Both the position numbers and the translations under genes were made by a program. From contig WTGL01000072.1 of NCBI GenBank assembly GCA_011523565.1, forward strand, positions 1,914 through 57,342: DNA of 55,429 nt, written 5' to 3'. The notes below the pieces were generated by a model. The model made no database searches, was not told the DNA's origin, and saw only the letters and a list, made by a program, of their open reading frames with translations. Source of the DNA: Acidobacteriota bacterium (lineage in GTDB: Bacteria; Acidobacteriota; Thermoanaerobaculia; Multivoradales; Multivoraceae). Below are positions 19,393-39,842 of the stretch, piece after piece. Position 1 is the first letter of the stretch. The number at the start of each line of letters is the position of its first letter.

Positions 19393-19519
19393 GATCCGTT
19401 CTCCTCCTTGAGCCGGCGATGGTCCACCGGATCCGGTTGCTCTACCTGACAAGGACGGATTCTCGGCCCGGCATCCGGGCTCGGGTGCGCCCGTGGCGGC
19501 ACGCTACGCTTGACCGTTG

Positions 19520-22072
19520 ATGGAAGCCGCCCGAAGAGCCTGGATTCCGGCCCTTGCAGCAGGGCTCCTCTTCGTCTTCACGGCCCCGCTGGCCGCGCAG
19601 GAGGAGAGGAAGGAGACCCGCAAGGAGAGGCGGGAGCGCCGGGCGGCGATGGAAGCGGCCGAAGAGGCGCTGCCGCTCGAGTTCAAGAAGTTCCTCGACG
19701 ACGTCCACTACCTGATCTCGGAGACGGAGCGCGAGGCGTTCCTCGCCGTCACGCAGGACTACCAGCGCCGGGCCTGGATCGAACGGTTCTGGCGCGTGCG
19801 CGACTCCTACCCCGACACGCCGCGCAACGAGTTCCGGGCCCGCTGGGAGGAGCGCCTGCTCTACGTCGAGCAGGAGTTCGAAGACAAGCGATCGGACCGC
19901 GCGTGGATGTTCCTGCTCAACGGGGAGCCTGACGGACGGCTCCAGTTCCAGTGCACGATGGTCACCTGGCCGATCGAGATCTGGTTCTACCGGCGCAGCG
20001 ACCAGGTGGGCCACGAGTTCTTCCTGCTGTTCTACCGCCGCGCCAACCAACCCATCTACGAACTCTGGCACCCCACCGACGGCCTCGACCGGCTGCTGGA
20101 CTACGGCGTCAGCGCGCAGGGGGTGGCCGGCGAAATCCAGGGCTGCAAGGACGGCGACATCGCCGCGTCCGCGATCAACTGGCTGCTGCGCTCGAACGGC
20201 ATGGAGTTCGCCATGCTGATGGGACGCCTGATCGAAACGCCGGAGGCGCCCTCGGCGGAGTGGACGCTCACCTTCGAGGCCTACACGACGGACGTGCCGG
20301 AAGACGCCGAGCCCCTGGACGCCAGCCTCGAGGTCCGCTACCCGGCGCGCTACCAGGCGCGGACCGTGGTCGAGGCCCTGGTCGAGATCGACCCGTCCTC
20401 CGCCCGCCCCGACACGGTGGGCGGGCAGTCGAGCTACAACTTCTTCCTCACCGGGGAAATCCTGCGCGAGGACGCGCTGTTCGAGAACTTCCGGTACAAG
20501 TTCGACCTGCCGCTGGGCAGCGCGGCGGGCATCGACGGCGCGCCGATCCTGCTCTCCTTCGAACGGCGGCTGCGGCCGGGCGACTACCGCCTCGTGCTGA
20601 AGATCGAGGATCTGAACGGCGCCCGCTTCGCCCGCCTGGAGCAGCCCCTCGAGGTGCCGACCCTCGAGGCGCCCGCCGCCCGCCAGCTCGACCCGGCGGT
20701 GCAGAAGATCATCGACCAGGCGGAGGCCGTGCTCTCGAGCGAGGTGCCCACCGTGCAGCTCCTGGAACCGCCCGGCGAACTCCAGACCGGCCTGGTGCGC
20801 TTCGACACTCTGGCGACCGGCGACATCGCCGAGATGCGCTTCTGGCTCGACGGCAACCAGGTTGCCCGCAAGCGCCGGGCGCCGTTCTCGGTCGAGCTCG
20901 ATCTCGGCTCGGTGCCCCGGGTCCACGTCCTGCGCGCCACCGCCCACGATGAGGACGGCGCCGAGGTCGCCTCGGACGAGATCTCCATGAACTCCGGGCG
21001 CAACCGCTTCGCCCTCCGTTTCGCCGAACCGCGCGAAGGCGTCAAGTACGAAGGCGAAGTCCAGGTCGAGATCGACCTCGCCGTCCCGGACACAAGCCTG
21101 GTCGAGCGCCTGGAGCTCTTCCTCAACGACGAGCCGGTCGCCACCCTCTACCAGGAGCCCTTCAGCCAGCGGGTCGAGCTTCCGCCCGGCGACGAGATCA
21201 CCTACCTGCGCGCCGCCGCCTTTCTGGTCGACGGCAACTCCACCGACGCGGTCGTCTACGTCAACGCGCCGGACTACCTGGAGATTCTCGACATCCAGTA
21301 CGTCGAGCTCTACGCGACCGCGCTGCACCGATCGGGCCGGCCGGTCGAGGACCTGCGCGCCGACCAGGTTGCGATCCTCGAGGACGGCGCGCCGCAGGAG
21401 ATCCTGCGCTTCCAGCGGGTCACCGACCTGCCGGTCCACGTCCAGGTGATGCTCGACGTCTCGGCCTCCATGGTCGACCGTCTGGCCACCGCCCGCGAGG
21501 CCGCTCTCGGCCTGTTCCAAAGCGCGATCACCCCTCGCGACCGGGCGGCCCTGGTCACCTTCAACGACCACCCGTACCTCGCCTCCGACTTCACCAACGA
21601 CACCGCCAAGCTCGCCGGGTCGCTCGCCGGTCTCAAGGCCGAACGCGGCACCGCCCTCTACGACGCGCTCGTCTTCGGCCTCTACTACCTGAACGGGATC
21701 AAGGGTCAGCGCGCGCTGGTGCTCCTCTCCGACGGCAAGGACGAGAGCAGCCGCTTCAGCTTCGACCAGACCCTCGAGTACGCCCAACGCTCCGGCGTCG
21801 CGATCTACGCGATCGGCCTCGGCCGCCAGGTGGGCGCCGCCAAGCGGGCACTCTCACGCCTCGCCACGCAGACCGGCGGCCGCTCCTTCTTCATCGGCAG
21901 CGTCGGCGAACTCGCCGGCGTCTACGACCAGATCCTCGGCGAGCTGCGCTCCCGCTACCTGATCACCTACCAGTCGACCAACACGAGCGGCAACCGCCGC
22001 TTCCGCGAAATCGAGGTCGACGCCAGGGTTCCGGGCGTGTCGATCCGTGCGCTGAAGGGGTACTACCCGTGA
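19520..22072 (+). CDS. GWxTD-like domain / Acidobacteria-type VWA (TIGR03436-like) secreted protein
   Basis: Signal peptide. N-terminal block ERFWRVRDSYPDTPRNEF...LLNGEPD. C-terminal VWA with MIDAS-like MLDVSASM...GTALYDAL...LLSDGKDESS. Confidence 0.75.
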   Translation: MEAARRAWIPALAAGLLFVFTAPLAAQEERKETRKERRERRAAMEAAEEALPLEFKKFLDDVHYLISETEREAFLAVTQDYQRRAWIERFWRVRDSYPDTPRNEFRARWEERLLYVEQEFEDKRSDRAWMFLLNGEPDGRLQFQCTMVTWPIEIWFYRRSDQVGHEFFLLFYRRANQPIYELWHPTDGLDRLLDYGVSAQGVAGEIQGCKDGDIAASAINWLLRSNGMEFAMLMGRLIETPEAPSAEWTLTFEAYTTDVPEDAEPLDASLEVRYPARYQARTVVEALVEIDPSSARPDTVGGQSSYNFFLTGEILREDALFENFRYKFDLPLGSAAGIDGAPILLSFERRLRPGDYRLVLKIEDLNGARFARLEQPLEVPTLEAPAARQLDPAVQKIIDQAEAVLSSEVPTVQLLEPPGELQTGLVRFDTLATGDIAEMRFWLDGNQVARKRRAPFSVELDLGSVPRVHVLRATAHDEDGAEVASDEISMNSGRNRFALRFAEPREGVKYEGEVQVEIDLAVPDTSLVERLELFLNDEPVATLYQEPFSQRVELPPGDEITYLRAAAFLVDGNSTDAVVYVNAPDYLEILDIQYVELYATALHRSGRPVEDLRADQVAILEDGAPQEILRFQRVTDLPVHVQVMLDVSASMVDRLATAREAALGLFQSAITPRDRAALVTFNDHPYLASDFTNDTAKLAGSLAGLKAERGTALYDALVFGLYYLNGIKGQRALVLLSDGKDESSRFSFDQTLEYAQRSGVAIYAIGLGRQVGAAKRALSRLATQTGGRSFFIGSVGELAGVYDQILGELRSRYLITYQSTNTSGNRRFREIEVDARVPGVSIRALKGYYP

Positions 22073-24600
22073 GATTCGCAGCAGCGTCCGCGCTTCTCGT
22101 CCTCACCCTCCTCGCCACCGCCGCCCTGGCCCAGGACGACGCCACCGCCACCCTCGACCGCCGCCATGCGGACTTCCTCGACACCGCCGACGCGATCCTC
22201 ACGGACACCGAGCGGCGCGTGTTCGGCGAACTCCGGCACGGCTACCAGCGCGACGCCTTCATCAAGCGCTTCTGGAGCGTCCGCGACCCCTATCCTGAAA
22301 CGCCGCAGAACGAGTTCCGGGAGCGCTTCGATCACATGCGGGAGCTGGCCGACGAGCGCTTCGGCGGCGCCCGGGGCGCCCGTTTCGAGGCGCTGCTCCT
22401 GCACGGGGAGCCGCAGCGCGCGTTCACCACCACGTGCCGGCTGCTGCGCACGCTTCACATCTGGCACTATTCGCACAGCCCGGTCGTGCGCGGCGAGTTC
22501 TACCTCGTCTTCCTGCGCCAAGGGGGCGACTACCGCTTGTGGACGGTCACCGACGGGCTCTCCGGCCTGCTCATCTTCACCGGTGCGGCGATCGACCGCG
22601 ATTCCCGGATCGAGGAGATCAACCGCGAGTGCGCGCGCGGCGGCGACGTGCTGACCGCGCTGGCACTGGCGCTCGACTGGGAGGCGATGGGCGGCGAACC
22701 CGAGCCCGGACGGGCCAACGACGAATGGGCGCTCGCCTTCCTCGACCGCAGCACGGAGGCGCCGGCCGGCGCGGCGCAGTTGCCGGCCGAGATCGCGATG
22801 CGGTACCCGGGACGCCGGGGCAGCCGCACCGTGGTCCAGGCGATCGTCGGCATCGATCCGGCCCGGCTGCCCGAGGCCGGGGACGGCCGCCGGCGCTTCC
22901 TGCTCGACGGCGAGGTCCTGCGGCAGGGCGAACTGTTCGAGAACTTCCGCTATCGCTTCGAGCCGCGCACCCGGTCTCCGGCCAGAGGCAGCGGAGCGAT
23001 TCCCCTCGTCATGCAGCGCTATCTGCGACCCGGGGCGTACCGGCTGGTGGTCAAGGTGCGCGACCAGGACAGTGGCAGCTACTTCGCCGCCAACGCGGAC
23101 ATCGACGTGCCGCTCGTGCCGCGGACACCGGCGGAAGCGGCCGCCCCGGGCCTCGCGGCCAACCCGACCAGCCCGGCCAGCCCGGCCAGCCCGGCGGACT
23201 GGCTGGCCGAGGCGAACGCGGCCGCACCCCTCGACACCGAGTCGGACGAGCACACCGTCCGCATCCTGCCGCTGCCCGAGCGGCTCCTCGTCGGCCGCGT
23301 CCGGATCGGCGCCGACGCCGAGGGCGCGGACATCCACCGGGTCGCGTTCTCGCTCAATGACCGGGAGCTGATCAGCAAGCGACGGCCGCCTTACCAGGTG
23401 GAGATCGACCTGGGTCCGACGCCGCGCATCCACACGCTGCAGGCGAACGCCTACGACCCGCAGGGAGGTGTGCTGGCAAGCGACGAAGTGCTGCTCAACT
23501 CCGGGCCGCACCGCTTCACCGTCCGTCTGACCTCGCCCCAACGCGGAGCTAACCACACGCGCAGCGTGCGCGCGGTCGCCGAAGTCGAAGCGCCGCGCCA
23601 CGAGCGGCTCGACCGGGTCGAGTTCTTCCTCAACGACACCCGCACCGCGACCCTCTACCAGCCGCCCTTCGAGCAGCCGATCCGGATCGATCCGGGCGAG
23701 CCCCTCTCCTACGTTCGCGTGGTGGCCCACCTGGAAACCGGCGCCTGGGCCGAGGATCTCGTCTTCGTCAACTCCCGCGACCGGGTCGAGTACGTCGACG
23801 TCGCCCTGATCGAGCTCTACGTCTCGGTCACTGACCGCTCCGGCGCGCCCCTGACCGGCCTGGCCGAGGGCGACTTTATGGTCTTCGTCGACGGCGAGGC
23901 GCAGCCCCTCCAGCGTTTCGACCAGGCCGCCAACCTGCCCGTCCACGCCGGCATCCTCTTCGACACCTCGACCTCCATGGTCGACCGCATCGACGCCGCC
24001 GAGGAGGCGGCGCTCCACTTCTTCGAACTCGTCCTCGGGCCGCAGGACCGCGCCTGTCTGATCACCTTCAACGACCGGCCCGAGCTCGCCGTCGGCTTCA
24101 CCGGCTCCAGGGAGACCCTGGCCGGCGGCCTGGCGGACCTGACCACGGAGGGCGAGACCGCCCTCTACGACAGCGTGCTCTACGCCCTCTACTACTTCGG
24201 CGGCCTGCGCGGCAAGCGGGCGCTGATCCTGCTCACCGACGGCGGCGACTCCAGCAGCGAGCACCACTTCGACGACGTGCTCGACTTCGCCCGGCGCAGC
24301 CAGGTGGCGATCTACAGCATCGGCATCGACATCGACCAGCGCGAACTCCTCGTTCGGGGCCGGCTGCAGCAGCTCTGCAACGAGACCGGGGGCCGGTGCT
24401 TCTTCATCACCGGAGCATCGGAGCTGAAGCGCGTCTACGAACGGATCGAAACCGAGGTCCGCTCCCAGTACCTGCTCGCGTTCGAGTCTCCCGAGGGCGA
24501 CCCCGACGCCTTCCGCAAGGTCGACGTGAAGCTCGCCAACCCCCGACCCCAGGGCCGCCGTGGCGTCAAGGTCCAGACGATCCCGGGCTACTTCCAGTGA
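22069..24600 (+). CDS. Paralogous GWxTD-like / VWA secreted protein
   Basis: Same architecture as the upstream gene (KRFWSVRDPYPETPQNEF...; LFDTSTSM...ETALYDSV...LLTDGGDSSS). The GTG start overlaps the upstream stop (GTGA). Confidence 0.75.
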   Translation: MRFAAASALLVLTLLATAALAQDDATATLDRRHADFLDTADAILTDTERRVFGELRHGYQRDAFIKRFWSVRDPYPETPQNEFRERFDHMRELADERFGGARGARFEALLLHGEPQRAFTTTCRLLRTLHIWHYSHSPVVRGEFYLVFLRQGGDYRLWTVTDGLSGLLIFTGAAIDRDSRIEEINRECARGGDVLTALALALDWEAMGGEPEPGRANDEWALAFLDRSTEAPAGAAQLPAEIAMRYPGRRGSRTVVQAIVGIDPARLPEAGDGRRRFLLDGEVLRQGELFENFRYRFEPRTRSPARGSGAIPLVMQRYLRPGAYRLVVKVRDQDSGSYFAANADIDVPLVPRTPAEAAAPGLAANPTSPASPASPADWLAEANAAAPLDTESDEHTVRILPLPERLLVGRVRIGADAEGADIHRVAFSLNDRELISKRRPPYQVEIDLGPTPRIHTLQANAYDPQGGVLASDEVLLNSGPHRFTVRLTSPQRGANHTRSVRAVAEVEAPRHERLDRVEFFLNDTRTATLYQPPFEQPIRIDPGEPLSYVRVVAHLETGAWAEDLVFVNSRDRVEYVDVALIELYVSVTDRSGAPLTGLAEGDFMVFVDGEAQPLQRFDQAANLPVHAGILFDTSTSMVDRIDAAEEAALHFFELVLGPQDRACLITFNDRPELAVGFTGSRETLAGGLADLTTEGETALYDSVLYALYYFGGLRGKRALILLTDGGDSSSEHHFDDVLDFARRSQVAIYSIGIDIDQRELLVRGRLQQLCNETGGRCFFITGASELKRVYERIETEVRSQYLLAFESPEGDPDAFRKVDVKLANPRPQGRRGVKVQTIPGYFQ

Positions 24601-25249: not shown

Positions 25250-25992
25250 TTCACGAACCAAGCGACGGCCGGTCGCCAATCGAAAAGGAGATCCCGAATG
25301 ACCGAGAGGATCCTCGCAGAGGAAATCGCCTTCTACGAGAAGCACTTCGAGGAGTTTCGCCGGAAGTACGCCGGGCAGTACCTTCTCATTCACGGCGCTC
25401 AGTTGATCGGCGCGTACGACGACGAGTTGGAGGCCAACTACGACGGCTATCGGCAGGTTTGGAGGACGCGCACGGAGGGGCAAGGCTACCTGGTCCTGAA
25501 GGCGGGCGACCCGGCCATGCCGGTCGTGGAGATGCCCATCGTGACCAGGACTCGCTGGCCCTCCGATGCTGAGAATCCAACTTGAGGAGCGCTTCGGTGC
25601 CATCGTACAAGTCGAGATTCGACTACCGAGGGATCTGACACGAGAACAACACGTTCTTGGAAGGCACCCTGAGACTGTTCGGGGGGACGCCCTTGTCGAT
25701 ACCGGGTCCGATGTCACGGCCTTCGACCTTGACGCCGCAGTCCGAGCCGGATTGGAAAAGAGCGGTAGCGGAAAACTGACTACCGTCCTCGGCCACCACA
25801 GCGGGCAGGTTCCGCTACTGCTGGCTGAGGTCGAAATCACCGGATTCGGTACGTTCCCGGTGACAGGCGGCCGAGGCTTCGATCTTGCCCACCTGGACTA
25901 CGTCGCGGTCATCGGCCGCGACATCCTCCGGCACGGCATCCTGGTCTACAACGGCAGAGAAGGCTGGGCGACTCTGTCCCGCAATGGCGGCC
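25250..25992 (+). repeat. Direct-repeat copy 1 (~740 bp) covering the leader, the 95-aa gene and most of the protease gene
   Basis: Aligns by eye with 31033-31780 at roughly 80% nucleotide identity, starting at CA(C/T)GAACC..GCGACGGCCGGTCGCCAATCGAA and ending near CGCAATGG(C/T)GGC. Confidence 0.8.
25298..25585 (+). CDS. Small (95 aa) conserved hypothetical protein, copy 1; partner of the retropepsin-like protease. It possibly resembles DUF5678, but I cannot verify that.
   Basis: AAGGAG lies 8 nt upstream of the ATG. About 80% identical to the product of 31083-31370. Core motif KYAGQYLLIHGAQLIGAYDD. Confidence 0.75.
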   Translation: MTERILAEEIAFYEKHFEEFRRKYAGQYLLIHGAQLIGAYDDELEANYDGYRQVWRTRTEGQGYLVLKAGDPAMPVVEMPIVTRTRWPSDAENPT

Positions 25993-26015
25993 AGACAGAG
26001 GGGCGGTCGGTCTGA
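25566..26015 (+). CDS. Retropepsin-like (clan AA) aspartic protease, copy 1
   Basis: 149 aa. Active-site motif ALVDTGSDVT (D-T-G) and a C-terminal IIGRDILRH flap/dimer-like motif. The start overlaps the upstream gene by 20 nt. Confidence 0.8.
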   Translation: MLRIQLEERFGAIVQVEIRLPRDLTREQHVLGRHPETVRGDALVDTGSDVTAFDLDAAVRAGLEKSGSGKLTTVLGHHSGQVPLLLAEVEITGFGTFPVTGGRGFDLAHLDYVAVIGRDILRHGILVYNGREGWATLSRNGGQTEGRSV

Positions 26016-26190
26016 AGCCGGCGTGCGGGCGTTTCTACCGCCAGATTGCGTCTAGATCTCTATGAGGGGTCAAGACTCCCGTGAGTGCCTGCGCCGAGCA
26101 TCGGCGATCGTCCCTCTCGACATCCCGCTGTTAGCATCACTACTGACGACAGGCTTGCCTCAACGGATTCCACCGCCCTACGGAGAGCAC

Positions 26191-26715
26191 ATGACAACCG
26201 GAGAACAGGTCAGTGAGTCGCGGCGAAACGAGGCGTGGTTCGACTATCTTGAGGCGGTTCGGCTGGAGCGCTACTACTACAAGCTCTACGACCGCTACCA
26301 GGTGTGGAGGCAGGCAATCCGCCTCCTCATCTTTCTGTCTGTCTCGGGCAACGTCGTCGGCGCCTTGCAAGGCGCGCCCTCCTGGGTCATCTGGAGCGTG
26401 AGCACGGTTGCCGCGATCCTGCTGGCCGTCGACTTCCTGGGGGACCATGCCCGAAAGGCCGCCAGTTCCTTCGCCATCAGCCAGGCTTGCGCGGCGCTCT
26501 GCAACGACTACAGCCGTTTGTGGCAACAGATCAATGAGCGGGAGATCGACGAACTGCAGGTCGTCTCCAGACTCGCCGACCTGGCCGAGACCGTACGGAG
26601 AACGACCGGCCGAGCCGGCGATGTGGACCTGCGAACCAACGAGCGGCTGAACGAGCGGTCCACCGTGGAAGCCAACCAGCTCCTGGAGAGCCGCTATGTC
26701 GTCCAGGAAGCATAG
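26191..26715 (+). CDS. Two-TM membrane protein with a SLATT-like architecture (helix, TM hairpin, helical tail)
   Basis: The ATG at 26191 follows GGAGAG; an alternative ATG lies at 26062. TM1 is AIRLLIFLSVSGNVVGAL and TM2 is WVIWSVSTVAAILLAVDFL. They are flanked by an aromatic-rich helix (WFDYLEAVRLERYYYKLYDRY) and a helical tail. Confidence 0.6.
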   Translation: MTTGEQVSESRRNEAWFDYLEAVRLERYYYKLYDRYQVWRQAIRLLIFLSVSGNVVGALQGAPSWVIWSVSTVAAILLAVDFLGDHARKAASSFAISQACAALCNDYSRLWQQINEREIDELQVVSRLADLAETVRRTTGRAGDVDLRTNERLNERSTVEANQLLESRYVVQEA

Positions 26716-26830
26716 TGACGCCGGCAAGCGTCGCAGCGAGATCCGAACCGCTTCCTCCGGAAAGCCGCCGAGGCCGCCGAAGATCAAACCCGTGAAGCCG
26801 CCGCCACGGCCTTCGCCCAAGAAGAAGTAG
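26696..26830 (+). CDS. Possible 44-aa Lys/Pro/Arg-rich peptide ORF, below the ORF-track size cut-off
   Basis: Translation MSSRKHSDAGKRRSEIRTASSGKPPRPPKIKPVKPPPRPSPKKK. Overlaps the 2-TM gene end by 20 nt. Third positions are mostly G/C. No other support. Confidence 0.25.
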   Translation: MSSRKHSDAGKRRSEIRTASSGKPPRPPKIKPVKPPPRPSPKKK

Positions 26831-26867: not shown

Positions 26868-29800
26868 TCAGAACTCCATCCGCTGCCACCGGGCGGCTTC
26901 CGAGTCCCAGTACGTCGCGTTCCGGTCGTACGACTTGGCGATTCGCTCCAACACTTGGCTAACGAAGGGAGACCGGAAGGCAAGAGGCCTCGCCCAGCCC
27001 CGGCACCTGGCCGCGAGTTCTCGTTCCTGACCACCGCCTTCTCCACGCCAGACGGCGCCACGAGAATTCAGGACCCCCACAAGAAAACCGCTCGCCGATG
27101 CCTCGGTCGCTACTGCCTCCATCGCCTCGCAGACAGCAGAGCACGGCCATGAGCCATCGCAGTCTGACGGACTCTTGGAGAGTAGCTGGCCGATCCACTC
27201 GTCTACGGCGTTGGCTCGACCATGCCGACTACCTTGTCGCCTCGCTTCGGAAACCCAGCGCTGGAGAGCTTCAACGTCGATCTCGCCGCCTCCAGACTTG
27301 GCGCCAGGGATTCGGGCGGCCTTGCCAAGCACGGAGAAAGCCCTTTCACCCAAGAACGCTCTCTTGTCCGGGCTCGATACGGGCCAGCCATCCGGATCCT
27401 CGCGCCCGTCATTGCGCTTGCACAGAAGGGCCACAAGCCAGACGAAGTAGCTCGGGTCTTCGGAGACTCGACGCTCAAGGTTGGGGATGCCGTAGTCGTC
27501 GTGTTCCAGCTGGTCGAAGAAGGCGAACTCGTAGTCCGCCATCTCCTGCGGAGTTACTCCGCTTCTCTTACTCAGGGATTCGATCGCCCGGCAAACGTCG
27601 TAGGCGCGAATCTGGATACTGGAATCCGGCTCCGGGCCGGCAACGATCCCCTCCAGCAGGCGCCTCAACCGGAGTGTCTCGACCGCACCCCAATCAAGGC
27701 GAAGGGCAAAGAGTGCGGCGCGGGGCCGACCCGCAGCGAGGAGACGGTCGACCAGGTCCGTGAGTTCGTCCCCGGGCACCCGGACGAGGGGATAGGGCCG
27801 GACGTCGCGCCAGTACTTCTCCTGGATGTCACCGCTCTGTCGGCAGACGAGGCGCCACGTCTCCGGACTGAACGGCGCGCAGCAAAGGAGGCGAGCGATC
27901 TGTTTCCGTCGCAGCTCCGCGGTAAGGCCTTGCAGTAGCTCCGTTCGCTCGTCCTCATTTGCCTGGCTGAGAAAGCCTCGAAGGAACCCGTCCACCTGGC
28001 CTTCCTCCAGGTCAAGGCCGGTGGGGAGGTCACGCGACAGGCAGCCGCGAACGACTTCGGCACGTTCGCGCCGGTCGACCGCGCATGGCCAAACGAAGGC
28101 GCCCACCTTACCGGCAGAGTTGCTGGAGGGAAGAAGCGACAGGGCGCCCTTAAGGCCTCGGTCCGTCCAGATCTCCGCCATCGCTTCAGCCCGCCGCCTC
28201 TCAATGGCCTTCGTCCGCTCGGACAAGTCCATCCCGGCATCATGGTCGCCAGGCCATTCGCGAATGAAGTGCTCGGCGAAGAGCCACGCATGGCGCCTCG
28301 CCGGATCGCGCGGCGCGAGGCGGTCGTACATGATCTTCGCCCGCTGCCTCAAGGTGGGCTCGACCGCGGACGCGGACCTGGCGCTGCTGAAGGGCCGGAC
28401 GCGCTCCCGCAGGGCGGCCCGCTGCGCCTCGTCCGGGCGCTCTTCCAGCCACTCGTCGACGAGACTCCAGACCCGAGCCTGCTTCTCGTCCGGCATGTCG
28501 CCGAGAAGATCGATCACGTCCCCCAGTCGCTCGGCATCAAGCTCCTGTGGCCACTTCAGGAGCAACTCGAGCGATTTGCGCTCGAACTCAAGGCGGTCCT
28601 GGACGGAGATCGGCTCGCCCGCGTCCGCCGCATCGCTCCGCCACCGCGGCCGATAGCTGTAGTCGCCTGTCCTTGGACTGCTACGGAGCTGCTCCAGGCA
28701 GACTTGCCAACCCACTTCCGGGACGCGTCTGCAAAGCAGGTCAAGCGCCCCGAACCGATCATCGAGGGATGCGGCTGTCTGCGGCATCCAAGATCGGAAG
28801 ATCGCCTTCAGGCTGTTGATCGGCCGATTGTCCCAGTTGTCGTCTATCGGCGTCTTGGAGAGCTGTCCCAGGATCAGAACGACCCGAGACAGATTCTGCG
28901 GGTTCCATGCCAGACACTCCAGCGCCCAGAGAAGACTGGTTCGCGGACAGTCCCCGAAGGGACCCGGAGGCGCCGGCTTCAGGAGTTCGAACAGGGCCGA
29001 ATCGTCCTGCCTCAGGTCCCTCTCAAGCAGCCGAAGGAAGGCGTCCGGGGCCGCTTCCGCAAGCCTCGGAAGGTCGCGGTCGTAGGACATCAGCGCCTCA
29101 ACCGTCAACGGCGCCTCCGCTCCGTCCGGCGCCAGCAGCCGCCTGACGAGATCCGAGACCTGGGCTTCATGATCAATCCCAAGCCGCGCCTGGAATAGGC
29201 CGTTTCCGTGCACGGCCAGCAGCACCAGCGTTTCACAAACCCCGGTCCGGATCGCGTCCGAGTGATCGCGCAGTTTGCCGTGGATAGCCGCGGCCCATCT
29301 CTCGCCCAAGGGCAGATCCAGAGCGGGATCGATCTCGGACAGGACGTGCTCGGCGCGAAGGAGGAACTCGTCAAGATCATCCCGCGTCATGTGCCCTGCG
29401 ACAGCAAACAACGCATCGATCTGCGAGGCCACCCCCCTGTACTCGCCAACGGACCACACCGGACTGTCGTTCCACGCCAGCAGGCCCTGCAAGTCTTGGT
29501 CGACTTCGCGAAACGGGCGATCGGCAAGAGTCGACAGAAGCGCGCGATCCGCCCCGGAACCGGTCTGCCACGCCCCAACGAGAGCCATCGGCACCAGCCT
29601 GCGCGCGATCTCAGGCTCCTCAGCCCATCGAGGCGTCCCAAGTGCGGCGTTCCCGGAGAGACGACGCCGGAGGATTGTCGGAGAGCGGCCCGACTCCAGG
29701 GCCAACCGACCAACCTCCGCTCGGCTGAACCCCATCGTCTTGAGGGACTCCTCGAACGTCCCGTAGCCCACCAGGCCGAGTTCGATGTCCGGCTTCGGGT

Positions 29801-30959
29801 CTACCGGGTTGCGCGGACGAACTACAATGGCTGGACGCCTCCCGTGCGCGAGTTCACGTTCCGTCTCGCGATCGCTGGCGATCGGAATGAACGACGAGGT
29901 TGCACCTGCCAGGGTTCTCAGCGTCTGCGCCGAGTTCACGACAACGGCATGATCGGAGCTATCGGTGCCAGCTTCCTTGAACAGGCAGGCGAGGAAAGCA
30001 AGGGCCTCCGCAGTCGAATCCGCCGTCACAACGAATGAGCGCTCTCGATCTGGCCTGTTGAGCCAGGAGGCAAAGTCAGTCCGGTGCGTGCGAACCGCGG
30101 GTCCGAACATGCCTTCTGTCAGCCGGGGCTCCGTAACCCCGGCCCACCGCTCCCAGGCCCGGTCGAGAGTCATGCAATCTTCGACCGACGGGAGACCAAG
30201 CTGCTCTGCGAGCCAGACTTGGCCCTCGATGGACTCCTCCAGCCACTGCTCCAGATCGCTCGCGTCTAGAGCCCTCACGTCCTTCCAGTGACCCTCTTTC
30301 CTGCGTTCCTTCGCCCACTGGTTCTTCCTCGGCCAATTGCGCGACGAGACGAACACGAACGTCATCCCGTCTCTCTCCTCAGCCGGAAGAGCCAGTCGAT
30401 TCCTGAAGTCGGACGTGGCCTTGCTCGCGGGATCCTTGGCCGTACTCAACTCCCAGCCCGACCGGCCCTCCGGGATCCAGGGGGTCGCCGCCGCGGCCTC
30501 TACTCGACCGTCCCAACCCCGCCGCTGACCTTGGCCGTATCCAGGAAAGTCGACTTCGCGCAGTTCCCGGCCCGCTGACCGAACCAACCTCCTGACGAGG
30601 ACCGGCAGGCGGCTCCGGGCCTTCTCGTCGTGGTCTGCCCAGGAATCGATCTGCGACGCCTCGATTGTGAGAAACTCCGGCACATAGCTCCGAACCGCGA
30701 TCGTCCGCTCTTCCTCGCGACGCCGAGTACTCTCTGACTCGGCCTGGACGCGGAAAAGGTCGTCCAAATTGGCCCCGAACGCGGTCTTCAGGCGAAGGGC
30801 CATCTGCTGCGACAGTGAGGCTCTGCCGTTGAGGAGGTTCGACAGAGCGACCCTGCTGACGTTCAATCTCTCGGCGGCGGCCTTGACCGTCATCCCGCTG
30901 GGAATGACCCGTTTCCTGATGTAGTCGCCAACGCCCCCCGCCTCGTCTGGTGTCCGCAC
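26868..30959 (-). CDS. 1363-aa protein with an N-terminal HigA/VapI-type XRE helix-turn-helix fused to ~1290 aa of unassigned, mostly helical sequence
   Basis: N-terminus GDYIRKRVIPSGMTVKAAAERLNVSRVALSNLLNGRASLSQQMALRLKTAFGANLDDLFRVQ. I found no Walker A, HExxH or other catalytic motif. Many A/T-ending codons compared with flanking core genes. GTG start at 30959. Confidence 0.8.
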   Translation of the reverse strand: MRTPDEAGGVGDYIRKRVIPSGMTVKAAAERLNVSRVALSNLLNGRASLSQQMALRLKTAFGANLDDLFRVQAESESTRRREEERTIAVRSYVPEFLTIEASQIDSWADHDEKARSRLPVLVRRLVRSAGRELREVDFPGYGQGQRRGWDGRVEAAAATPWIPEGRSGWELSTAKDPASKATSDFRNRLALPAEERDGMTFVFVSSRNWPRKNQWAKERRKEGHWKDVRALDASDLEQWLEESIEGQVWLAEQLGLPSVEDCMTLDRAWERWAGVTEPRLTEGMFGPAVRTHRTDFASWLNRPDRERSFVVTADSTAEALAFLACLFKEAGTDSSDHAVVVNSAQTLRTLAGATSSFIPIASDRETERELAHGRRPAIVVRPRNPVDPKPDIELGLVGYGTFEESLKTMGFSRAEVGRLALESGRSPTILRRRLSGNAALGTPRWAEEPEIARRLVPMALVGAWQTGSGADRALLSTLADRPFREVDQDLQGLLAWNDSPVWSVGEYRGVASQIDALFAVAGHMTRDDLDEFLLRAEHVLSEIDPALDLPLGERWAAAIHGKLRDHSDAIRTGVCETLVLLAVHGNGLFQARLGIDHEAQVSDLVRRLLAPDGAEAPLTVEALMSYDRDLPRLAEAAPDAFLRLLERDLRQDDSALFELLKPAPPGPFGDCPRTSLLWALECLAWNPQNLSRVVLILGQLSKTPIDDNWDNRPINSLKAIFRSWMPQTAASLDDRFGALDLLCRRVPEVGWQVCLEQLRSSPRTGDYSYRPRWRSDAADAGEPISVQDRLEFERKSLELLLKWPQELDAERLGDVIDLLGDMPDEKQARVWSLVDEWLEERPDEAQRAALRERVRPFSSARSASAVEPTLRQRAKIMYDRLAPRDPARRHAWLFAEHFIREWPGDHDAGMDLSERTKAIERRRAEAMAEIWTDRGLKGALSLLPSSNSAGKVGAFVWPCAVDRRERAEVVRGCLSRDLPTGLDLEEGQVDGFLRGFLSQANEDERTELLQGLTAELRRKQIARLLCCAPFSPETWRLVCRQSGDIQEKYWRDVRPYPLVRVPGDELTDLVDRLLAAGRPRAALFALRLDWGAVETLRLRRLLEGIVAGPEPDSSIQIRAYDVCRAIESLSKRSGVTPQEMADYEFAFFDQLEHDDYGIPNLERRVSEDPSYFVWLVALLCKRNDGREDPDGWPVSSPDKRAFLGERAFSVLGKAARIPGAKSGGGEIDVEALQRWVSEARRQGSRHGRANAVDEWIGQLLSKSPSDCDGSWPCSAVCEAMEAVATEASASGFLVGVLNSRGAVWRGEGGGQERELAARCRGWARPLAFRSPFVSQVLERIAKSYDRNATYWDSEAARWQRMEF

Positions 30960-30968
30960 GATCAGATG

Positions 30969-30997
30969 ATCGTAAAGCGACGCTTATCACTTGTCAA
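30969..30997 (-). promoter_or_regulatory. Sigma70-like promoter for the 1363-aa gene
   Basis: Minus strand reads TTGACA-17 nt-TACGAT. The -10 box ends 9 nt before the GTG, which implies a leaderless or near-leaderless mRNA. The spacer contains the palindrome AAGCG-N-CGCTT (30975-30985). Confidence 0.45.
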
Positions 30998-31032: not shown

Positions 31033-31780
31033 GATCATGAACCCGGCGACGGCCGGTCGCCAATCGAACAGGGAGATCCCGAATGACCGAGAAGGCACTC
31101 GCCGAAGAGATCGCTCTCTACGAAGAGCACTTTGAGGAGTACCGCCGGAAGTACGCCGGCCGGTACCTCCTGATACACGGCGCCAAGTTGATCGGCGCCT
31201 ACGACGACGAGTTGGCGGCCCACTACGACGGTTACCGGCGGGTGTGGCGAACGAGGACGGAAGAGCGTGGCTACCTCGTGCTCAAGGCCGGCGAGCCGGC
31301 CGTTCCAGTCATCGCGATGCCCATCGTGACGAGGACGCTCCGGCCGTCCGATGCCGAGAATCCGACTTAAGGAGAACTTCGGCGCCATCGTCCAGGTCGA
31401 GATTCGACTTCCACCGGATCTGAGCCAGGAGAAGCAGGTTCTCGGAATCCACTCCGAGCTGGTCGCCGGAGAAGCTCTGATCGACACAGGGGCGGATGTC
31501 ACAGCGTTCGACCTGAAGGCAGCAGAACGAGCGGGCTTGGTACGCAGTGGCACCGGAAGACTCAGCACGGTTCTTGGTCAGCATGACAGCGAAACGCTTC
31601 TCTTTCTCGGCGAGATCGAGATAGCCAGCTTCGGCGCCTTCACCGTCCCCAACGGGCGCGGCTTCGACCTCTCCCACCTGAGCTACGTCGCGATCATCGG
31701 CCGCGACATCCTCCGGCACGGAGTCCTGGTCTACAACGGCAAGGAGGGGTGGGCGAGTCTGTCTCGCAATGGTGGCTCCA
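31033..31780 (+). repeat. Direct-repeat copy 2 of the small-protein/protease module
   Basis: See copy 1 at 25250-25992. Confidence 0.8.
31083..31370 (+). CDS. Small (95 aa) conserved hypothetical protein, copy 2
   Basis: MTEKALAEEIALYEEHFEEYRRKYAGRYLLIHGAKLIGAYDD... Same length and ~80% identity to copy 1. AGGGAG RBS. Confidence 0.75.
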   Translation: MTEKALAEEIALYEEHFEEYRRKYAGRYLLIHGAKLIGAYDDELAAHYDGYRRVWRTRTEERGYLVLKAGEPAVPVIAMPIVTRTLRPSDAENPT

Positions 31781-31806
31781 AGGAGCGAGCGCCGGCTCCC
31801 CCCTAA
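31351..31806 (+). CDS. Retropepsin-like (clan AA) aspartic protease, copy 2
   Basis: ALIDTGADVT active-site motif and IIGRDILRH. Has the same 20-nt overlap with its upstream partner. Its 3' end overlaps the apgM stop by 4 nt (convergent). Confidence 0.8.
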   Translation: MPRIRLKENFGAIVQVEIRLPPDLSQEKQVLGIHSELVAGEALIDTGADVTAFDLKAAERAGLVRSGTGRLSTVLGQHDSETLLFLGEIEIASFGAFTVPNGRGFDLSHLSYVAIIGRDILRHGVLVYNGKEGWASLSRNGGSKERAPAPP

Positions 31807-35747: not shown

Positions 35748-38700
35748 CTACCGTCGACAGGCATCCGGGAACGCCCTGGTATCAGTGATCGCATTCGCCG
35801 GCTTGCCCGGGCTCTTCGCATACGTCCACGTCGCGTTGGTTTCCGTGTCGGTCACCCGGATGCGGAATCCGAGATCCGTCGCAGACGCAGCAAACACCCA
35901 GTGCTGTCCGTTCACCGCGCAACCGTCCAGTACCTTGATCAGCATCTCCCAGTTCCTTGGATCGAAGAACGAGTAGAGCCCCGAATCCGTCGTACCCACC
36001 GGCACGCGGCGAGCGGATTTGTAGTCGCCGCCCGACGTTCGCCACAACACCCTGACCCGATAGCGCCCATCCTGGAGACAGAGGATCGACGACGAGTTCA
36101 TGCACTCGCCGCTCACAGGTTGAGCCACGGCGACACCGAAGTCGACTTCCTCCGGCCAGGACACGGCATCCCCCACGCTCCGATTCTCAGGCGGGTCGAA
36201 CGTAGCCAGATACCCAGCAACAGCAGAAGAACTGGCGCTGCAGCTCCTCGGAAACGCCTTACTGTCCGTAATCGCGGGCGCCGGCTTGCCCGGTCGATTC
36301 CGATACACCTTCACGCGGCCCGTCACCGTGTCCGTCACGCTGATCGAGTAGCCGAGGTTCGTCGTCGAAGCGCCGTATACCCATACATGGCCGTTCACCG
36401 AACACCCATCCAGTACCTTGATGAGAACCTCCCAGTTCTCCCGCCCGAAGAACCAGAACAGCCCCGAGTCGTTGGTTCCGGCGTAGGCCACTTTCGCCTG
36501 CCCTCGCCTACCATCGGCCGTTAGCCACCGGGCACGTACCCTGTAGCGCGAATCTCCAAGACACAGCGTCTCCTTGCCAGGCTCGCACGTGCCGGCCGGA
36601 TCGCTCGACTCCACCAGGAACGTCCGCGACGTCGCAGACTCGCGGGAACCATCGCTCACCCACAGCGTCACGTCATAGAAACCCGGCTCCGACCAGCTAT
36701 GGTCGACTCTAGGCCGGTTCGACTCGACGCCGTCGCCAAAGGCCCATCGACGGGACGCCACGAAGCCCGTGCTGATGTCCGTGAAGCGGACCTTCTCCCC
36801 GGTCGCTACCCGGCACAACTCGCTGTCGCAGACAATACCGCTCACCTCTATCTCGGACGCAAGAGGCGCAAAGCAAGGGAAAGCGAACTTGTCATTCCGG
36901 GCTTCAGCTACCTCTCCTGAGCCGTTCGTGTGTGCCCACCGCTCACCCTTCGGGTTTTCCACGTACAAGTTGAATGCCCGTAGCGTAGCTGGGGCCACGT
37001 ACACCCAACGATGACCGTTCACGCTACAGCCATCGATCACCTTGACCAGCGCCTCCACGGTGTTGCGGTCGGAGAAGTAGAGCAGGCCCATCCGGCTGGA
37101 GTCCAGCCCCCAGTCCCGGGCATCGCGAACTTCGCCCTTGTCCGTCTCGTAGCACATGCTGACCGTGTAGCCGCCGCGCAGCGTCAGTGAGGGACCGTCG
37201 GGCTCACAGTCCGTTTTCGCCCCGGGACTCAGCGGCGTCGCCGATACAGGCGACACGTCGGGCAGTGGCGTGTCGTCTGACGAGAAACCCCTCTCGCTTC
37301 CCTTGTCCAGGGAGGCCCTAGCAGCCTCAATCTCTGCAGTCGTACATGGAAACGCCGTCGTGTCGCTCACGGTGCGCGCCGTCCGGTCCTTCCGGTTGCC
37401 GACCATGTCGCCCAAGGTGCGCCGAATCCGGTCCTGCGCCCGACGTTCCGAGTCGTAGTACCAGACCTGTCTCCTGTTCTCGATGTAGGGGCCTGACTCC
37501 CGAATCTCGAGCCGGAACGGCAGAGTCGTGACCGGAGCCACGAACACCCAGCGGTGGCCGCTAGTTGCGCAGTTGTCCAGCACGTTGACCAGAATCTCGG
37601 CGTCGTCCCGGTCGGAGAAGTAGAGGAGTCCCGACTGGTCTGCCTCGAGTTGGTAGTCCCAGGCCCGCCGCCGGGCGCCGTCAGCAGTCTCCAGGCAGGC
37701 CCAGACCTGGTAGCCGTCCAGATCGATTCCTGTTTCCCGGTGGAGGCAGTCCGTGATCTCTCCGGATGGGGTTGGCTCCGGGTGCGGTCCCGGCATGAAC
37801 TCCAGATCGAAAGTCTCGCTAGCGTTCCACCCCTTGTCGTTGTACGCAACGACGACGAACGAGTAGCGGCCACTCTCGGCCCTACCGGGAAGCCAGTCCC
37901 CGTCCTCGGTCTTGTAGTAGTCCGTGACCGCAGGCTCATCCTCGGCCAAGAGGCCGTCCACGTCCACGTACCGGGTACGCGCTGGCAGCGGTTCACCGAA
38001 GCGACTCCAGACCTCGTCCGGCTCCTCGCCGGACCACTTGCGGTACCAGACCTCGTAGCCGTCCTCGACACTGGAGTTGTCGCGCCAGTGCAGGCGGACA
38101 CTGTCGGGGCCGGTCACACGAGCGCCGAGCTGGGTCGCCGCAGCCGGCGAACCGGAGACGCGGCCACGCGGTTTCAGGTGGAACACTTCGCTAACCAACG
38201 CAATCGTCCGTGTCTCCGTATCGGGGTCCCAAAAGTTGGGACCCTCAACCGCAATCCTGTAGCTGCCGCCAGGCCGCAAGCCCGCTATATCGACGCCTAC
38301 CTGAGAGCCGTTGGCCCTGACGATCGGTGTAACGTTGCCGTCGGACCACCGATAGGTGTCGTTGGCCCCCCCCACCAGTACCACGCGTACGTTGCCACTT
38401 TCCTGAGAACGCCAGTCCCCCGACCAGGCCACTCGCACCGTGTCACGACTCGTCCAGCGGGCTCCGGTCACCCGACGGGGATACTGCCGGGCCCTGTAGG
38501 GCACCTGACCACTAACCACCGCCACAGGAACCGTCTCGTAGAACAGGCGTTCGACCTCGCTCGTCCCCGCGACCCCGATCGTCCAGCCGTTCGGCTTGTG
38601 CCTGACCGAGGAGTAGAAGGGTTCCGTTTCGTAGAAACGCGTGGGGTCGTCAAACGTCTCCTGGCCATAGCTCATGATCGTCGCCGGACAAAGTAACCAG

Positions 38701-39842
38701 TCGCCAGACCCTCTCCGTTTGGCGCACGAGGTCATGTCCGTGTGGCCGAAGCGGTAAGGCCTGAAGCTGCTGGATTGGTACTCCTCAAATCCGTCGCCGA
38801 ACGTCACCGGTTCATGGTGCCCACCGAGGTTGTGGCCGATCTCGTGAGCGAACACCCACCCTGATGGCACGGACCAGCCGGTCAGCACGTACGGATCAAG
38901 GCTGAAGCGCAGGGCGCCCTGGCCGGCTGCGCCAGGTGCTCTCACATCCGGAATGAAGTGAATCAGATCCGGCCTGTGGCGCTTCCGGAGGCTCGCGACC
39001 TCCGGACTGTCCCTCAGTTCCCAGTGCCAGACTCGTCCGACGGAGAACCGGCGCAGGAAGTGGAACCCCTGCGTCCGTGGGTGGTTCGCGAGCTTGGGGT
39101 CCCAACGCACTGGGATCAGGTTCGCGGTCTCCTTGATCGCTCCGTTGCGAAGCACCATGTTCAGGTAGTCGGCGAGTTGCCGGACGCCCACCGCGGTACC
39201 GCCGATCGCCCGCCAGTACCGCTCGGTTCCACTTGTGTAGAGCGTAAGGATGTCCAGGCGGTCGTCGCTCGATTGTGAGGCCACTGATACTTGGCGATCC
39301 GCCGTCGCGGCAACATCACGCACCAGGTCGCTCCCCGGACCGGCCTCGACACCACACCAGTCGCCGGCCGGCCCGACTTCCTGGGCCAGCGAGCCGCGCC
39401 CGTCCGGGTCGGCGTAGACGACGTACTTCGGCCCTCCTGGCTCCCCGAACCACCCCACAAGATGCCCGTCCTGGACGGTGAACAGCACGCTTTCGTAGCC
39501 CGCTCCCGGCACTTCGCCGGTCCACATCAGGTTGCCGCCTCCCCGGTCCTCGAACACCGCGTTCTCGGCCTCAACAACCGAGCCGTCCGGCAGCGGGAAC
39601 TCCAGGTAGCCCATACCGAGGCGCAGGTAGTCGTAGGTGACCTGCACGGTCGCCGCTTCGACGGACGGCGCGCCGGCGGCCGCGGAGCTGATCGCCGTGC
39701 CGTCCATCACGATCGGCGTAGCCGGCTGGAGTGCAACTTCCTCGATGTTCCAGAGCTGCTGGGCCGAGCTCGCGGCGGGCAGGGCCAGCAGGGTGATCAG
39801 TCCCAGAGTGGCTCCGGTCAAGGCGGGAGTGCATGGGGTCAT
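35748..39842 (-). CDS. Giant secreted metzincin (reprolysin-like) multidomain protein: protease, Fn3-like domains, 2 Cys-framed modules, PKD, then 2 more Cys-framed modules
   Basis: Signal peptide ...LLALPAASSAQQ. Zinc motif FAHEIGHNLGGHH (HExxHxxGxxH). Fn3-like VTGPDSVRLHWRDNSSVEDGYEVWY. PKD segment VRFTDISTG...WAFGDG...HSWSEPGFYDVTLWVSDG. Four ~115-aa repeats. Confidence 0.85.
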   Translation of the reverse strand: MTPCTPALTGATLGLITLLALPAASSAQQLWNIEEVALQPATPIVMDGTAISSAAAGAPSVEAATVQVTYDYLRLGMGYLEFPLPDGSVVEAENAVFEDRGGGNLMWTGEVPGAGYESVLFTVQDGHLVGWFGEPGGPKYVVYADPDGRGSLAQEVGPAGDWCGVEAGPGSDLVRDVAATADRQVSVASQSSDDRLDILTLYTSGTERYWRAIGGTAVGVRQLADYLNMVLRNGAIKETANLIPVRWDPKLANHPRTQGFHFLRRFSVGRVWHWELRDSPEVASLRKRHRPDLIHFIPDVRAPGAAGQGALRFSLDPYVLTGWSVPSGWVFAHEIGHNLGGHHEPVTFGDGFEEYQSSSFRPYRFGHTDMTSCAKRRGSGDWLLCPATIMSYGQETFDDPTRFYETEPFYSSVRHKPNGWTIGVAGTSEVERLFYETVPVAVVSGQVPYRARQYPRRVTGARWTSRDTVRVAWSGDWRSQESGNVRVVLVGGANDTYRWSDGNVTPIVRANGSQVGVDIAGLRPGGSYRIAVEGPNFWDPDTETRTIALVSEVFHLKPRGRVSGSPAAATQLGARVTGPDSVRLHWRDNSSVEDGYEVWYRKWSGEEPDEVWSRFGEPLPARTRYVDVDGLLAEDEPAVTDYYKTEDGDWLPGRAESGRYSFVVVAYNDKGWNASETFDLEFMPGPHPEPTPSGEITDCLHRETGIDLDGYQVWACLETADGARRRAWDYQLEADQSGLLYFSDRDDAEILVNVLDNCATSGHRWVFVAPVTTLPFRLEIRESGPYIENRRQVWYYDSERRAQDRIRRTLGDMVGNRKDRTARTVSDTTAFPCTTAEIEAARASLDKGSERGFSSDDTPLPDVSPVSATPLSPGAKTDCEPDGPSLTLRGGYTVSMCYETDKGEVRDARDWGLDSSRMGLLYFSDRNTVEALVKVIDGCSVNGHRWVYVAPATLRAFNLYVENPKGERWAHTNGSGEVAEARNDKFAFPCFAPLASEIEVSGIVCDSELCRVATGEKVRFTDISTGFVASRRWAFGDGVESNRPRVDHSWSEPGFYDVTLWVSDGSRESATSRTFLVESSDPAGTCEPGKETLCLGDSRYRVRARWLTADGRRGQAKVAYAGTNDSGLFWFFGRENWEVLIKVLDGCSVNGHVWVYGASTTNLGYSISVTDTVTGRVKVYRNRPGKPAPAITDSKAFPRSCSASSSAVAGYLATFDPPENRSVGDAVSWPEEVDFGVAVAQPVSGECMNSSSILCLQDGRYRVRVLWRTSGGDYKSARRVPVGTTDSGLYSFFDPRNWEMLIKVLDGCAVNGQHWVFAASATDLGFRIRVTDTETNATWTYAKSPGKPANAITDTRAFPDACRR
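39317..39764 (-). repeat. Inverted-repeat arm (N-terminal coding region of the metzincin paralogs)
   Basis: About 85% nucleotide identity by eye to 42889-43339 on the opposite strand. Example: ACCGTGCAGGTCACCTACGACTACCTGCGCCTCGG versus ACCGTGCAGGTGGTGTACGACTACCTGCGGCTCGG. Confidence 0.8.

Follow-up and report, generated by a model that had tools for sequence, protein, structure and literature searches.

A P-loop-less protein superfamily with a fused HigA-type helix-turn-helix as candidate Avs-like sensor-effectors of environmental bacteria

Single-protein sensor-nucleases of the NLR-like kind have been described before. The one that appears closest to the protein treated here is PD-lambda-4A, or Avs8A, a member of the AVAST family that combines an Mrr nuclease with a P-loop NTPase and detects the major capsid protein (10.1101/2025.07.02.662641; 10.64898/2026.01.04.697583). 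A homologue devoid of the P-loop has also been reported: the nucleotide-binding residues are naturally missing from KpAvs8, one of the Avs proteins that were put through anti-phage assays (10.64898/2026.01.04.697583). Upx is a large sensor with a divergent PD-(D/E)xK nuclease that has no working STAND NTPase and senses terminase (PMC13601566). Here we analyze a gene from an Acidobacteriota bacterium that encodes a protein of 1363 amino acids (aa), in which a HigA-type helix-turn-helix (HTH) domain is fused to a body of 1290 aa. The gene lies on a 55,429-nucleotide stretch of contig WTGL01000072.1 (assembly GCA_011523565.1), hereafter called the window. Our preferred reading, for which we estimate a probability of roughly 55%, is that the protein is a stand-alone Avs-like (NLR-like) intracellular sensor-effector that represses its own synthesis and resides on mobile and defense-island DNA. 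The coding sequence and the regions of the protein are located in the window as follows.

26868..30959, minus strand: complete coding sequence, 1363 aa, GTG start, stop codon at 26868-26870
30735..30932, minus strand: HigA/XRE-type helix-turn-helix, aa ~10-75, with a linker helix to aa ~87
30180..30659, minus strand: putative PD-(D/E)xK/Mrr-like nuclease, aa ~101-260, with invariant D150, E170, K180 and D184
29391..30116, minus strand: STAND/AAA+-like NOD module without P-loop, aa ~282-523, from the AlphaFold2 model and Foldseek
26871..29339, minus strand: all-alpha HEAT/ARM-like solenoid of ~820 aa, aa 541-1363, putative sensor, from the AlphaFold2 model

When 5.8 billion proteins were searched with the window protein, the matches formed more than 2,462 clusters at 90% identity, and the clusters listed were nearly all 1340-1380 aa long and aligned across 98-100% of the query. 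The fusion of an antitoxin-type HTH to a very large body, called unusual in an earlier note on this DNA that was made from the letters alone, is thus a widely shared architecture. In a full HMMER scan with aa 95-560, 3,547 clusters at 50% identity passed E<=1e-3, and 1,376 of them reached E<=1e-30. Conservation of the protein over its full length extends across more than 10 bacterial phyla and takes in conjugative plasmids. Full-length homologues were located at 31 genome loci (loci are numbered with the prefix L below) in Acidobacteriota, Gemmatimonadota, Nitrospirota, Binatia, Latescibacterota, Planctomycetota and Alpha- and Gammaproteobacteria. Members also occur in 75 plasmid records, 34 of them conjugative, from hosts that include Shewanella baltica, Ensifer, Rhizobium, Cupriavidus metallidurans CH34, Ralstonia, Adhaeribacter and Arthrobacter. 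One genome carries two diverged paralogues, 65% and 53% identical to the query and 270 kb apart. The family spreads horizontally. At L045 (8001-12071) an F-type tra operon harbors a member in the opposite orientation, between traU and the next gene downstream. In two loci from metagenome-assembled genomes (MAGs), L015 and L019, the gene is split by a frameshift, which could be pseudogenization or a long-read assembly error. Public annotation of family members is confined to 'HigA family antidote', 'HTH regulator' and 'hypothetical', and apart from the HTH no Pfam or NCBIfam model covers the family.

The window reading frame of 1363 codons has no internal stops, and pairwise dN/dS among homologues was 0.09-0.42, indicating purifying selection. 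With 3,547 homologue clusters and dN/dS below 0.45, the reading frame is real and no artifact, a possibility that the earlier note had left open. No profile matched a family outside conflict systems either. These data also bear on the idea that the protein is a non-catalytic, housekeeping HEAT-repeat scaffold associated with DNA and without a role in conflict, or else an annotation artifact. A scaffold would agree with the failure of every profile library to recognize a catalytic motif, but it fits poorly with the patchy, horizontally transferred phyletic pattern, with carriage on plasmids and integrative conjugative elements, with a GC content at third codon positions (GC3) below that of the host, with evolution faster than that of the flanking genes, and with the invariant polar residues of the nuclease-like domain. 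We consider this explanation extremely unlikely.

The region of aa 101-260 is likely an Mrr-like nuclease, as suggested by predicted topology and conserved residues. In the AlphaFold2 (AF2) model, DSSP assigns helices (H) and strands (E) in the order H111-129, E131-137, E151-157, E165-172, H177-188, E199-205, H212-222 and E227-231, and an alpha-beta-beta-beta-alpha-beta core is present across aa 111-231. None of 112 close homologues deviates at D150, E170 or K180, and the set D150/E170/K180/D184 is retained in relatives at 25-30% identity. In the model D150 directly precedes beta2, E170 is part of beta3, and the following helix holds both K180 and D184. A restriction-endonuclease-like core with a weak, non-canonical D/E/K arrangement had already been suspected in the earlier note; the modeled topology fits this suggestion and the residues proved invariant across the superfamily. 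When the motifs were read manually against Escherichia coli Mrr, a type IV restriction enzyme of the PD-(D/E)xK class, their order was collinear and their spacing similar, with GDGGID of Mrr corresponding to RRGWDG, YVQAK to GWELS, GVFITTSGFT to TFVFVSSRNW and VLVDGERLVHL to VRALDASDLEQWL, although the QxK lysine of Mrr is not conserved in place in the window protein. A Foldseek search of BFVD, aimed at viral nucleases, gave AAA+/RFC and HTH proteins only.

The model of aa 1-560 (pLDDT 85.5) suggests that aa 282-523 form a NOD module of the STAND/AAA+ type, composed of a four-stranded alpha/beta subdomain (282-390), a helical subdomain with the motif GRSPTILRRRL (399-461) and a winged helix (469-523). 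This assignment follows from the Foldseek ranking against the PDB, with Apaf-1 (2.3e-4), CED-4 (9.5e-4) and an Avs5 filament (1.8e-3) ahead of RFC, ORC and the NRC4 resistosome, and from the RFC/AAA+ proteins matched in BFVD. By Foldseek the succession of nucleotide-binding domain (NBD), helical domain and winged-helix domain would be shared with Avs1-5, Avs7, Apaf-1, CED-4 and plant NLRs. The P-loop and Walker B of these receptors are missing in the window family. Beta1 (aa 309-313) is joined to the next helix by D314-S315 alone; the dipeptide DS is present in 112 of 112 sequences, E318, A321 and F322 are likewise invariant, and relatives at 25-30% identity have an equally short loop in the P-loop position. 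At the ends of the beta-strands there is no conserved acidic pair, as Walker B would require. A motif scan of the window protein found no GxxxxGK[ST], GK[ST], HExxH, DEAD, GGDEF or hhhhD[DE], in agreement with the earlier note, and no STAND, NACHT, NB-ARC or AAA model of Pfam or NCBIfam matched. Matches to [AG]xxxxGK[ST] in some homologues were dismissed as chance, being unconserved and located outside the NBD. At the sequence level, the P-loop is missing throughout the whole superfamily. Other conserved motifs are retained, namely G424-R-S-P-T-I-L-R-R-R-L and the arginine-rich R381-P-R383-N384 after beta4; we take G424-x-S-P427 to stand at the STAND GxP position and R381-P-R383-N384 at the sensor-1 position.

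From these features one might derive a class of nucleotide-independent NLR-like receptors, in which a STAND NOD keeps its GxP-like and sensor-1-like motifs and carries D-S-x-x-E in place of the P-loop. Such receptors would be activated by another ligand or by target binding alone, the HTH would de-repress its own gene upon oligomerization, and at loci linked to restriction-modification (R-M) the protein might serve as a guard against restriction inhibitors by sensing anti-restriction proteins. This more specific proposal appears rather doubtful to us.

The remainder of the protein, aa 541-1363, was modeled with a pLDDT of 89 as entirely helical, and Foldseek related it to the HEAT solenoids of importin-beta, SF3B1, CRM1, condensin and ATR. 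The description of the body as helical repeats in the earlier note holds for this solenoid; the alpha/beta, helical and winged-helix module of aa ~282-523 had been missed. The suggestion of a large sensor-like body with the flavor of a conflict system is in keeping with the HEAT-like solenoid and with the mobile character of the family. In a per-domain analysis, dN peaked at aa 801-1060 in 8 of 8 pairs. Between L003 and L004, dS was 0.01-0.05 across aa 275-800 and 0.36-0.41 across aa 801-1363, a mosaic of alleles which suggests that the putative sensor end was exchanged by recombination. With a nuclease-like domain on the N-terminal side and a repeat sensor at the C-terminus, the predicted layout is effector-switch-sensor, the tripartite logic of Avs and other STAND receptors.

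The PADLOC, Pfam and NCBIfam models were run on the whole window protein, 34 homologues and 6-7 distant plasmid homologues. The PADLOC model PD-Lambda-4_A matched the window protein with 7e-5, aligning aa 589-739 to positions 517-659 of the 1283-position profile, and it matched 15 of the 34 homologues as well. In two members that lack the HTH, the coordinates of protein and profile were nearly equal: P0224 (1264 aa) aligned aa 527-637 to positions 562-664 (E = 4.2e-7), and a Shewanella BA175 protein (1272 aa) aligned aa 599-740 to positions 596-738. The window protein is offset from the profile by ~72-80 residues, about the size of the HTH region. Beyond this weak match the three libraries recognized HTH models only; matches to VMAP-M15, mad1, capH and RmrA were set aside as HTH matches or noise.

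Because architecture, length and this weak collinear similarity agree, Avs8 appears to be the closest known relative of the family, with membership not established. Both share the predicted domain order of N-terminal Mrr/PD-(D/E)xK-type nuclease, NOD and long helical sensor; the sizes correspond once the HTH is removed (~1264-1272 aa versus 1283 profile positions), and the weak HMM matches lie just past the winged helix. One Avs8 homologue, KpAvs8, likewise has no nucleotide-binding residues, but loss of Walker A and B covers the whole superfamily here and only single members in Avs8. Further differences are that the sequence similarity is marginal and partial, that Avs8 has no N-terminal HTH of the autoregulatory type, and that Avs8, which senses a major capsid protein of the HK97 fold, has been reported from Proteobacteria only, whereas more than 10 phyla contain members of the window family. 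At the 31 loci no second gene was conserved that would make up a two-gene operon as Avs8B does for Avs8, in comparisons where no search was aimed at Avs8B. Upx resembles the family in being a single large protein in which a sensor and a divergent nuclease are united and a working NTPase is missing. Its nuclease is C-terminal and its N-terminal sensor is beta-rich and uses beta-augmentation, so that the domain order is opposite to that of the window family, with its predicted all-alpha solenoid and NOD-like fold. No PADLOC Upx model was among the matches listed for the family, and identity with Upx or Ronin was rejected on architecture.

The HTH at the N-terminus, as proposed in the earlier note, was recognized directly. 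Pfam HTH_3 matched aa 14-68 of the window protein with 33.5 bits (cut-off 23; 4.5e-8) and was above the gathering score in 34 of 34 homologues tested. A PDB profile search gave matches in the HTH only, to YbaQ and HigA (1e-6 to 1e-5), the AF2 model has helices across aa 10-87, and Foldseek found a resemblance to HigA/GraA (TMt 0.67-0.77). The HigA equivalog TIGR02607 of NCBIfam scored 42.7 bits, short of its cut-off of 47.7. The GTG start is supported by close relatives in which an ATG occupies the exactly aligned codon. The database gene call P0001 (1341 aa) begins at M23 and would lose HTH helix 1; it is probably too short, since aa 10-22, upstream of this alternative start, are conserved and form that helix. 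Around the gene the following control elements were recognized.

30969..30997, minus strand: sigma-70-like promoter, TTGACA-17-TACGAT, with 10 nt between its end and the GTG
30975..30985, unstranded: palindrome AAGCGTCGCTT, putative HTH operator of type 2, in the -35/-10 spacer
26790..26809, minus strand: terminator-like hairpin with a T-rich tail, 59 nt past the stop, from a consensus scan only

With a promoter that ends 10 nt before the GTG and a terminator-like hairpin past the stop, the window gene appears to be transcribed as a single cistron and almost without a leader. Between the -10 box and the GTG there is another small palindrome, GATCATCTGATC (30960-30971, minus strand), which is not conserved in relatives.

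When the 130 nt upstream of the gene were aligned across all loci, a 14-bp palindrome, GTGTAGCGCTACAC (type 1), emerged in ~20 loci from many phyla and on the Shewanella plasmid pS19502. It is flanked by a -35 box (TTGTAT/TTGAC) and a -10 box (TACAAT-like), and in 848 kb of scanned sequence all but one of its matches with <=2 mismatches were located 39-91 nt upstream of the gene. The clade formed by the window, L001, L003, L004, L030 and L031 instead has a palindrome of the TAAAGCGnCGCTTTA type (type 2) at the same promoter position, with AAGCGTCGCTT as its form in the window. The HTH sequence changes with the operator type: [ST]RVALSN...RLK[TA], preceded by V, accompanies the TAAAGCGnCGCTTTA type, and GRPALSN...RLEK, preceded by [VI], accompanies the GTGTAGCGCTACAC type. 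Because of this co-variation and the cross-phylum conservation of a non-coding site, the best reading is that the HTH represses its own promoter through the palindrome as a putative operator. Palindromic operators in their own promoters are also a property of HigA antitoxins and of R-M control (C) proteins; the HTH subfamily is shared with these and with the other antitoxin-type XRE regulators YbaQ and VapI, from which the window protein differs by the fusion to a 1290-aa body.

The HTH and its conserved promoter palindrome would also suit a signal-sensing transcription factor of the MalT/AfsR/GutR kind, one that controls its own promoter and a divergent operon of a 95-aa protein and a protease and in which the nuclease-like domain is a non-catalytic relic. 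In regulators of this kind a DNA-binding domain is controlled by a STAND-type switch together with a repeat sensor. DNA-binding effectors are well established among STAND regulators, and the intergenic region is shared with this divergent operon, which travels with the gene in one clade. Yet the palindromic sites were found only in the gene's own promoter, and the 95-aa neighbor is limited to one Acidobacteriota clade. The HTH itself is missing in several branches (the Ralstonia, Adhaeribacter, Shewanella BA175, P0224 and P0258 members) and of another type in others; in a Rhizobium member the XRE HTH is a different one, with a match to R-M control proteins at 8.5e-15, and an Arthrobacter member has an HTH of the HTH_17/mad1 type (mad1 is the PADLOC model for the MADS HTH). 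The D/E/K residues of the nuclease-like domain and the rest of the body are kept everywhere. A transcription factor is therefore unlikely. Judged by these sequences, the HigA-type HTH is an optional accessory, dispensable or swapped in distant relatives.

The same HTH recalls addiction modules. In a fused toxin-antitoxin protein, the HigA-like domain would neutralize a nuclease-like toxin in cis and repress the promoter, stabilizing plasmids or islands; the frequent location on plasmids beside partition genes and the existence of fused toxin-antitoxin defense proteins such as CapRel agree with this. However, no HigB/RelE-like partner or domain is present: the flanks of the window contain no reading frame or Pfam match for a HigB/RelE-type toxin gene, and the 31 loci no conserved neighbor. 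Members without the HTH would be constitutively toxic, the gene is stably inherited at one chromosomal site in one clade, and the conserved yet fast-evolving 820-aa solenoid and the NOD-like module would be left unexplained. We regard such a module as very unlikely, and the HTH is not the antitoxin partner of a toxin, given the missing HigB and the loss or replacement of the domain in relatives.

If the protein is a self-repressed, Avs-like sensor-effector, it may work as follows. The HTH, probably as a dimer, would bind the palindrome between the -35 and -10 boxes and keep a potentially toxic protein at a low level, which would limit autoimmunity; it may also regulate the divergent neighboring operon. 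By analogy with Avs proteins, the C-terminal solenoid would bind a protein of an invading phage or plasmid, and target binding would lift autoinhibition and drive oligomerization through the NOD-like module. As Walker A and B are absent throughout the superfamily, this step would probably proceed without NTP binding or hydrolysis. The clustered N-terminal Mrr-like domains would then cut DNA, again by analogy with Avs proteins, so that the invader is stopped or the cell is killed.

Several observations weigh against this interpretation. The nuclease activity, the trigger and the defense function of the family are all things that we infer. In the nuclease-like domain, beta3 has no canonical (D/E)xK lysine and K180 sits one helix later. 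No nuclease family of Pfam, Mrr_cat included, matched the window protein, the 34 homologues or the distant plasmid homologues; a PDB profile search with the domain gave spurious matches to ribosomal uS13 only; hhalign against E. coli Mrr returned a non-significant probability of 0.3%; and Foldseek, in which the domain was searched as part of a longer model, gave no supporting match. The Foldseek TM-scores of the NOD module were low (0.2-0.33), as expected for multidomain superpositions, and without a P-loop the canonical STAND switch is gone, which makes oligomerization an assumption. The PD-Lambda-4_A match is short and weak and falls in a helical region, covering ~110-150 of 1283 positions. 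The co-variation of HTH and operator amounts to essentially one evolutionary switch and has limited statistical weight. In phage genomes searched for homologues there was a single marginal match.

The surroundings of the gene vary, and no neighbor is universal at the 31 loci. Type I hsdR/S/M genes directly adjoin it in about 10 of the 31, as well as in L033, L036 and L044, and 10 of the 120 nearest flanking genes encode type I HsdS. Two arrangements occur: an hsdR-M-S operon that converges on the gene (Nitrospirales, Binatia, Terriglobia), and a co-directional order gene-hsdR-hsdS-phd-hsdM (Multivorans, Holophagales). Other neighbors include AbiJ_NTD4, AbiE, Fic/DUF4172, Uma2, M78 peptidases, an AAA_15/21 ATPase, DUF4143, IS elements and ParAB. 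That type I genes adjoin the gene in two unrelated arrangements could mean that the protein guards R-M, its solenoid monitoring the R-M complex or capturing Ocr/ArdA-like anti-restriction DNA mimics and then firing the nuclease. There is a precedent for anti-anti-restriction (10.1101/2023.04.06.535777), and PrrC, PARIS and Ronin have been named as precedents. But two thirds of the loci, the window included, have no adjacent R-M system, the linked loci are phylogenetically clustered and so represent few independent events, and plain clustering in defense islands would give the same adjacency. A dedicated R-M guard is in our view quite unlikely.

The window is syntenic with four MAGs of Thermoanaerobaculia/'Ca. 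Multivorans', sharing Macro, PGM-like, Maf and vWA genes. Relative to these genomes the flanking proteins are 78-97% identical and the protein under study 64-74%. Given this synteny and the lower identity, the gene is an old resident that evolves faster than its neighbors. GC3 of the window gene is 0.76 versus ~0.9 in flanking genes, and a similar offset exists for homologues in other high-GC genomes. The foreign origin that the earlier note read from codon usage is compatible with the composition, but any transfer was not recent, since the gene is syntenic in four related genomes.

Some further features of the window are recorded here. A direct repeat of ~760 nt with ~80% DNA identity (25270-26015 and 31055-31806, both plus strand) brackets the gene and a 217-aa open reading frame (ORF), orf217. 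In both copies a 95-aa ORF shares 20 nt with an overlapping ORF of ~150 aa; the latter has a D-T-G retropepsin-like motif and sub-threshold Pfam matches to gag-asp_proteas/Asp_protease_2. Both 95-aa genes have, just ahead of their Shine-Dalgarno sequence, a GC-rich inverted repeat, GGCGAC...GTCGCC (~31040-31065 and ~25270-25290), which is conserved in L001, L003 and L004 and could be an operator or a hairpin in the 5'-untranslated region. The 95-aa gene adjoins the large gene in L001-L004, L030/L033, L031 and L044, different contexts included, and does not do so in other phyla; in L001 a homologue of orf217 replaces the protease downstream of it. orf217 itself (26062-26715, plus strand) is convergent with the large gene, has two hydrophobic, possibly transmembrane stretches by eye and no Pfam match, and is kept in L003 (79%) and L001 (59%), where its position in the locus differs. 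As conserved partners of the family, the 95-aa/protease pair and orf217 were rejected, being specific to one clade.

Two other large ORFs, at 35748-39842 (minus strand, 1364 aa) and 42805-46650 (plus strand, 1281 aa), were considered as a second copy of the gene and rejected as unrelated secreted proteins with an HExxH-type motif. They are paralogues of ~1300 aa with a signal-peptide-like N-terminus, the motifs HEIGHNLGGHH and HEVGHNLGGGH, and repeated cysteine-containing C-terminal domains, and their GC3 is lowered as well, at 0.77-0.79. At 19517-24600 (plus strand) two tandem vWA + Big_7 paralogues of ~850 aa, 37% identical to each other, are kept in L002-L004.

Beyond the described systems, the analysis adds a whole P-loop-less superfamily outside the models of Pfam, NCBIfam and PADLOC, the wide range of this superfamily over environmental phyla and conjugative plasmids, and a fused HigA-type putative autorepressor with a conserved putative operator. 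Cultured hosts exist in Shewanella baltica, Ensifer, Rhizobium, Cupriavidus metallidurans CH34 and Ralstonia. If the preferred reading is correct, a family that ranks among the larger unannotated ones in soil and sediment bacteria would gain a name and a testable model, and the family would provide a clean case of a defense gene with its own fused repressor and conserved operator. Avs/NLR-like immunity would then extend to receptors without an NTPase switch, which would bear on how NOD modules are activated.

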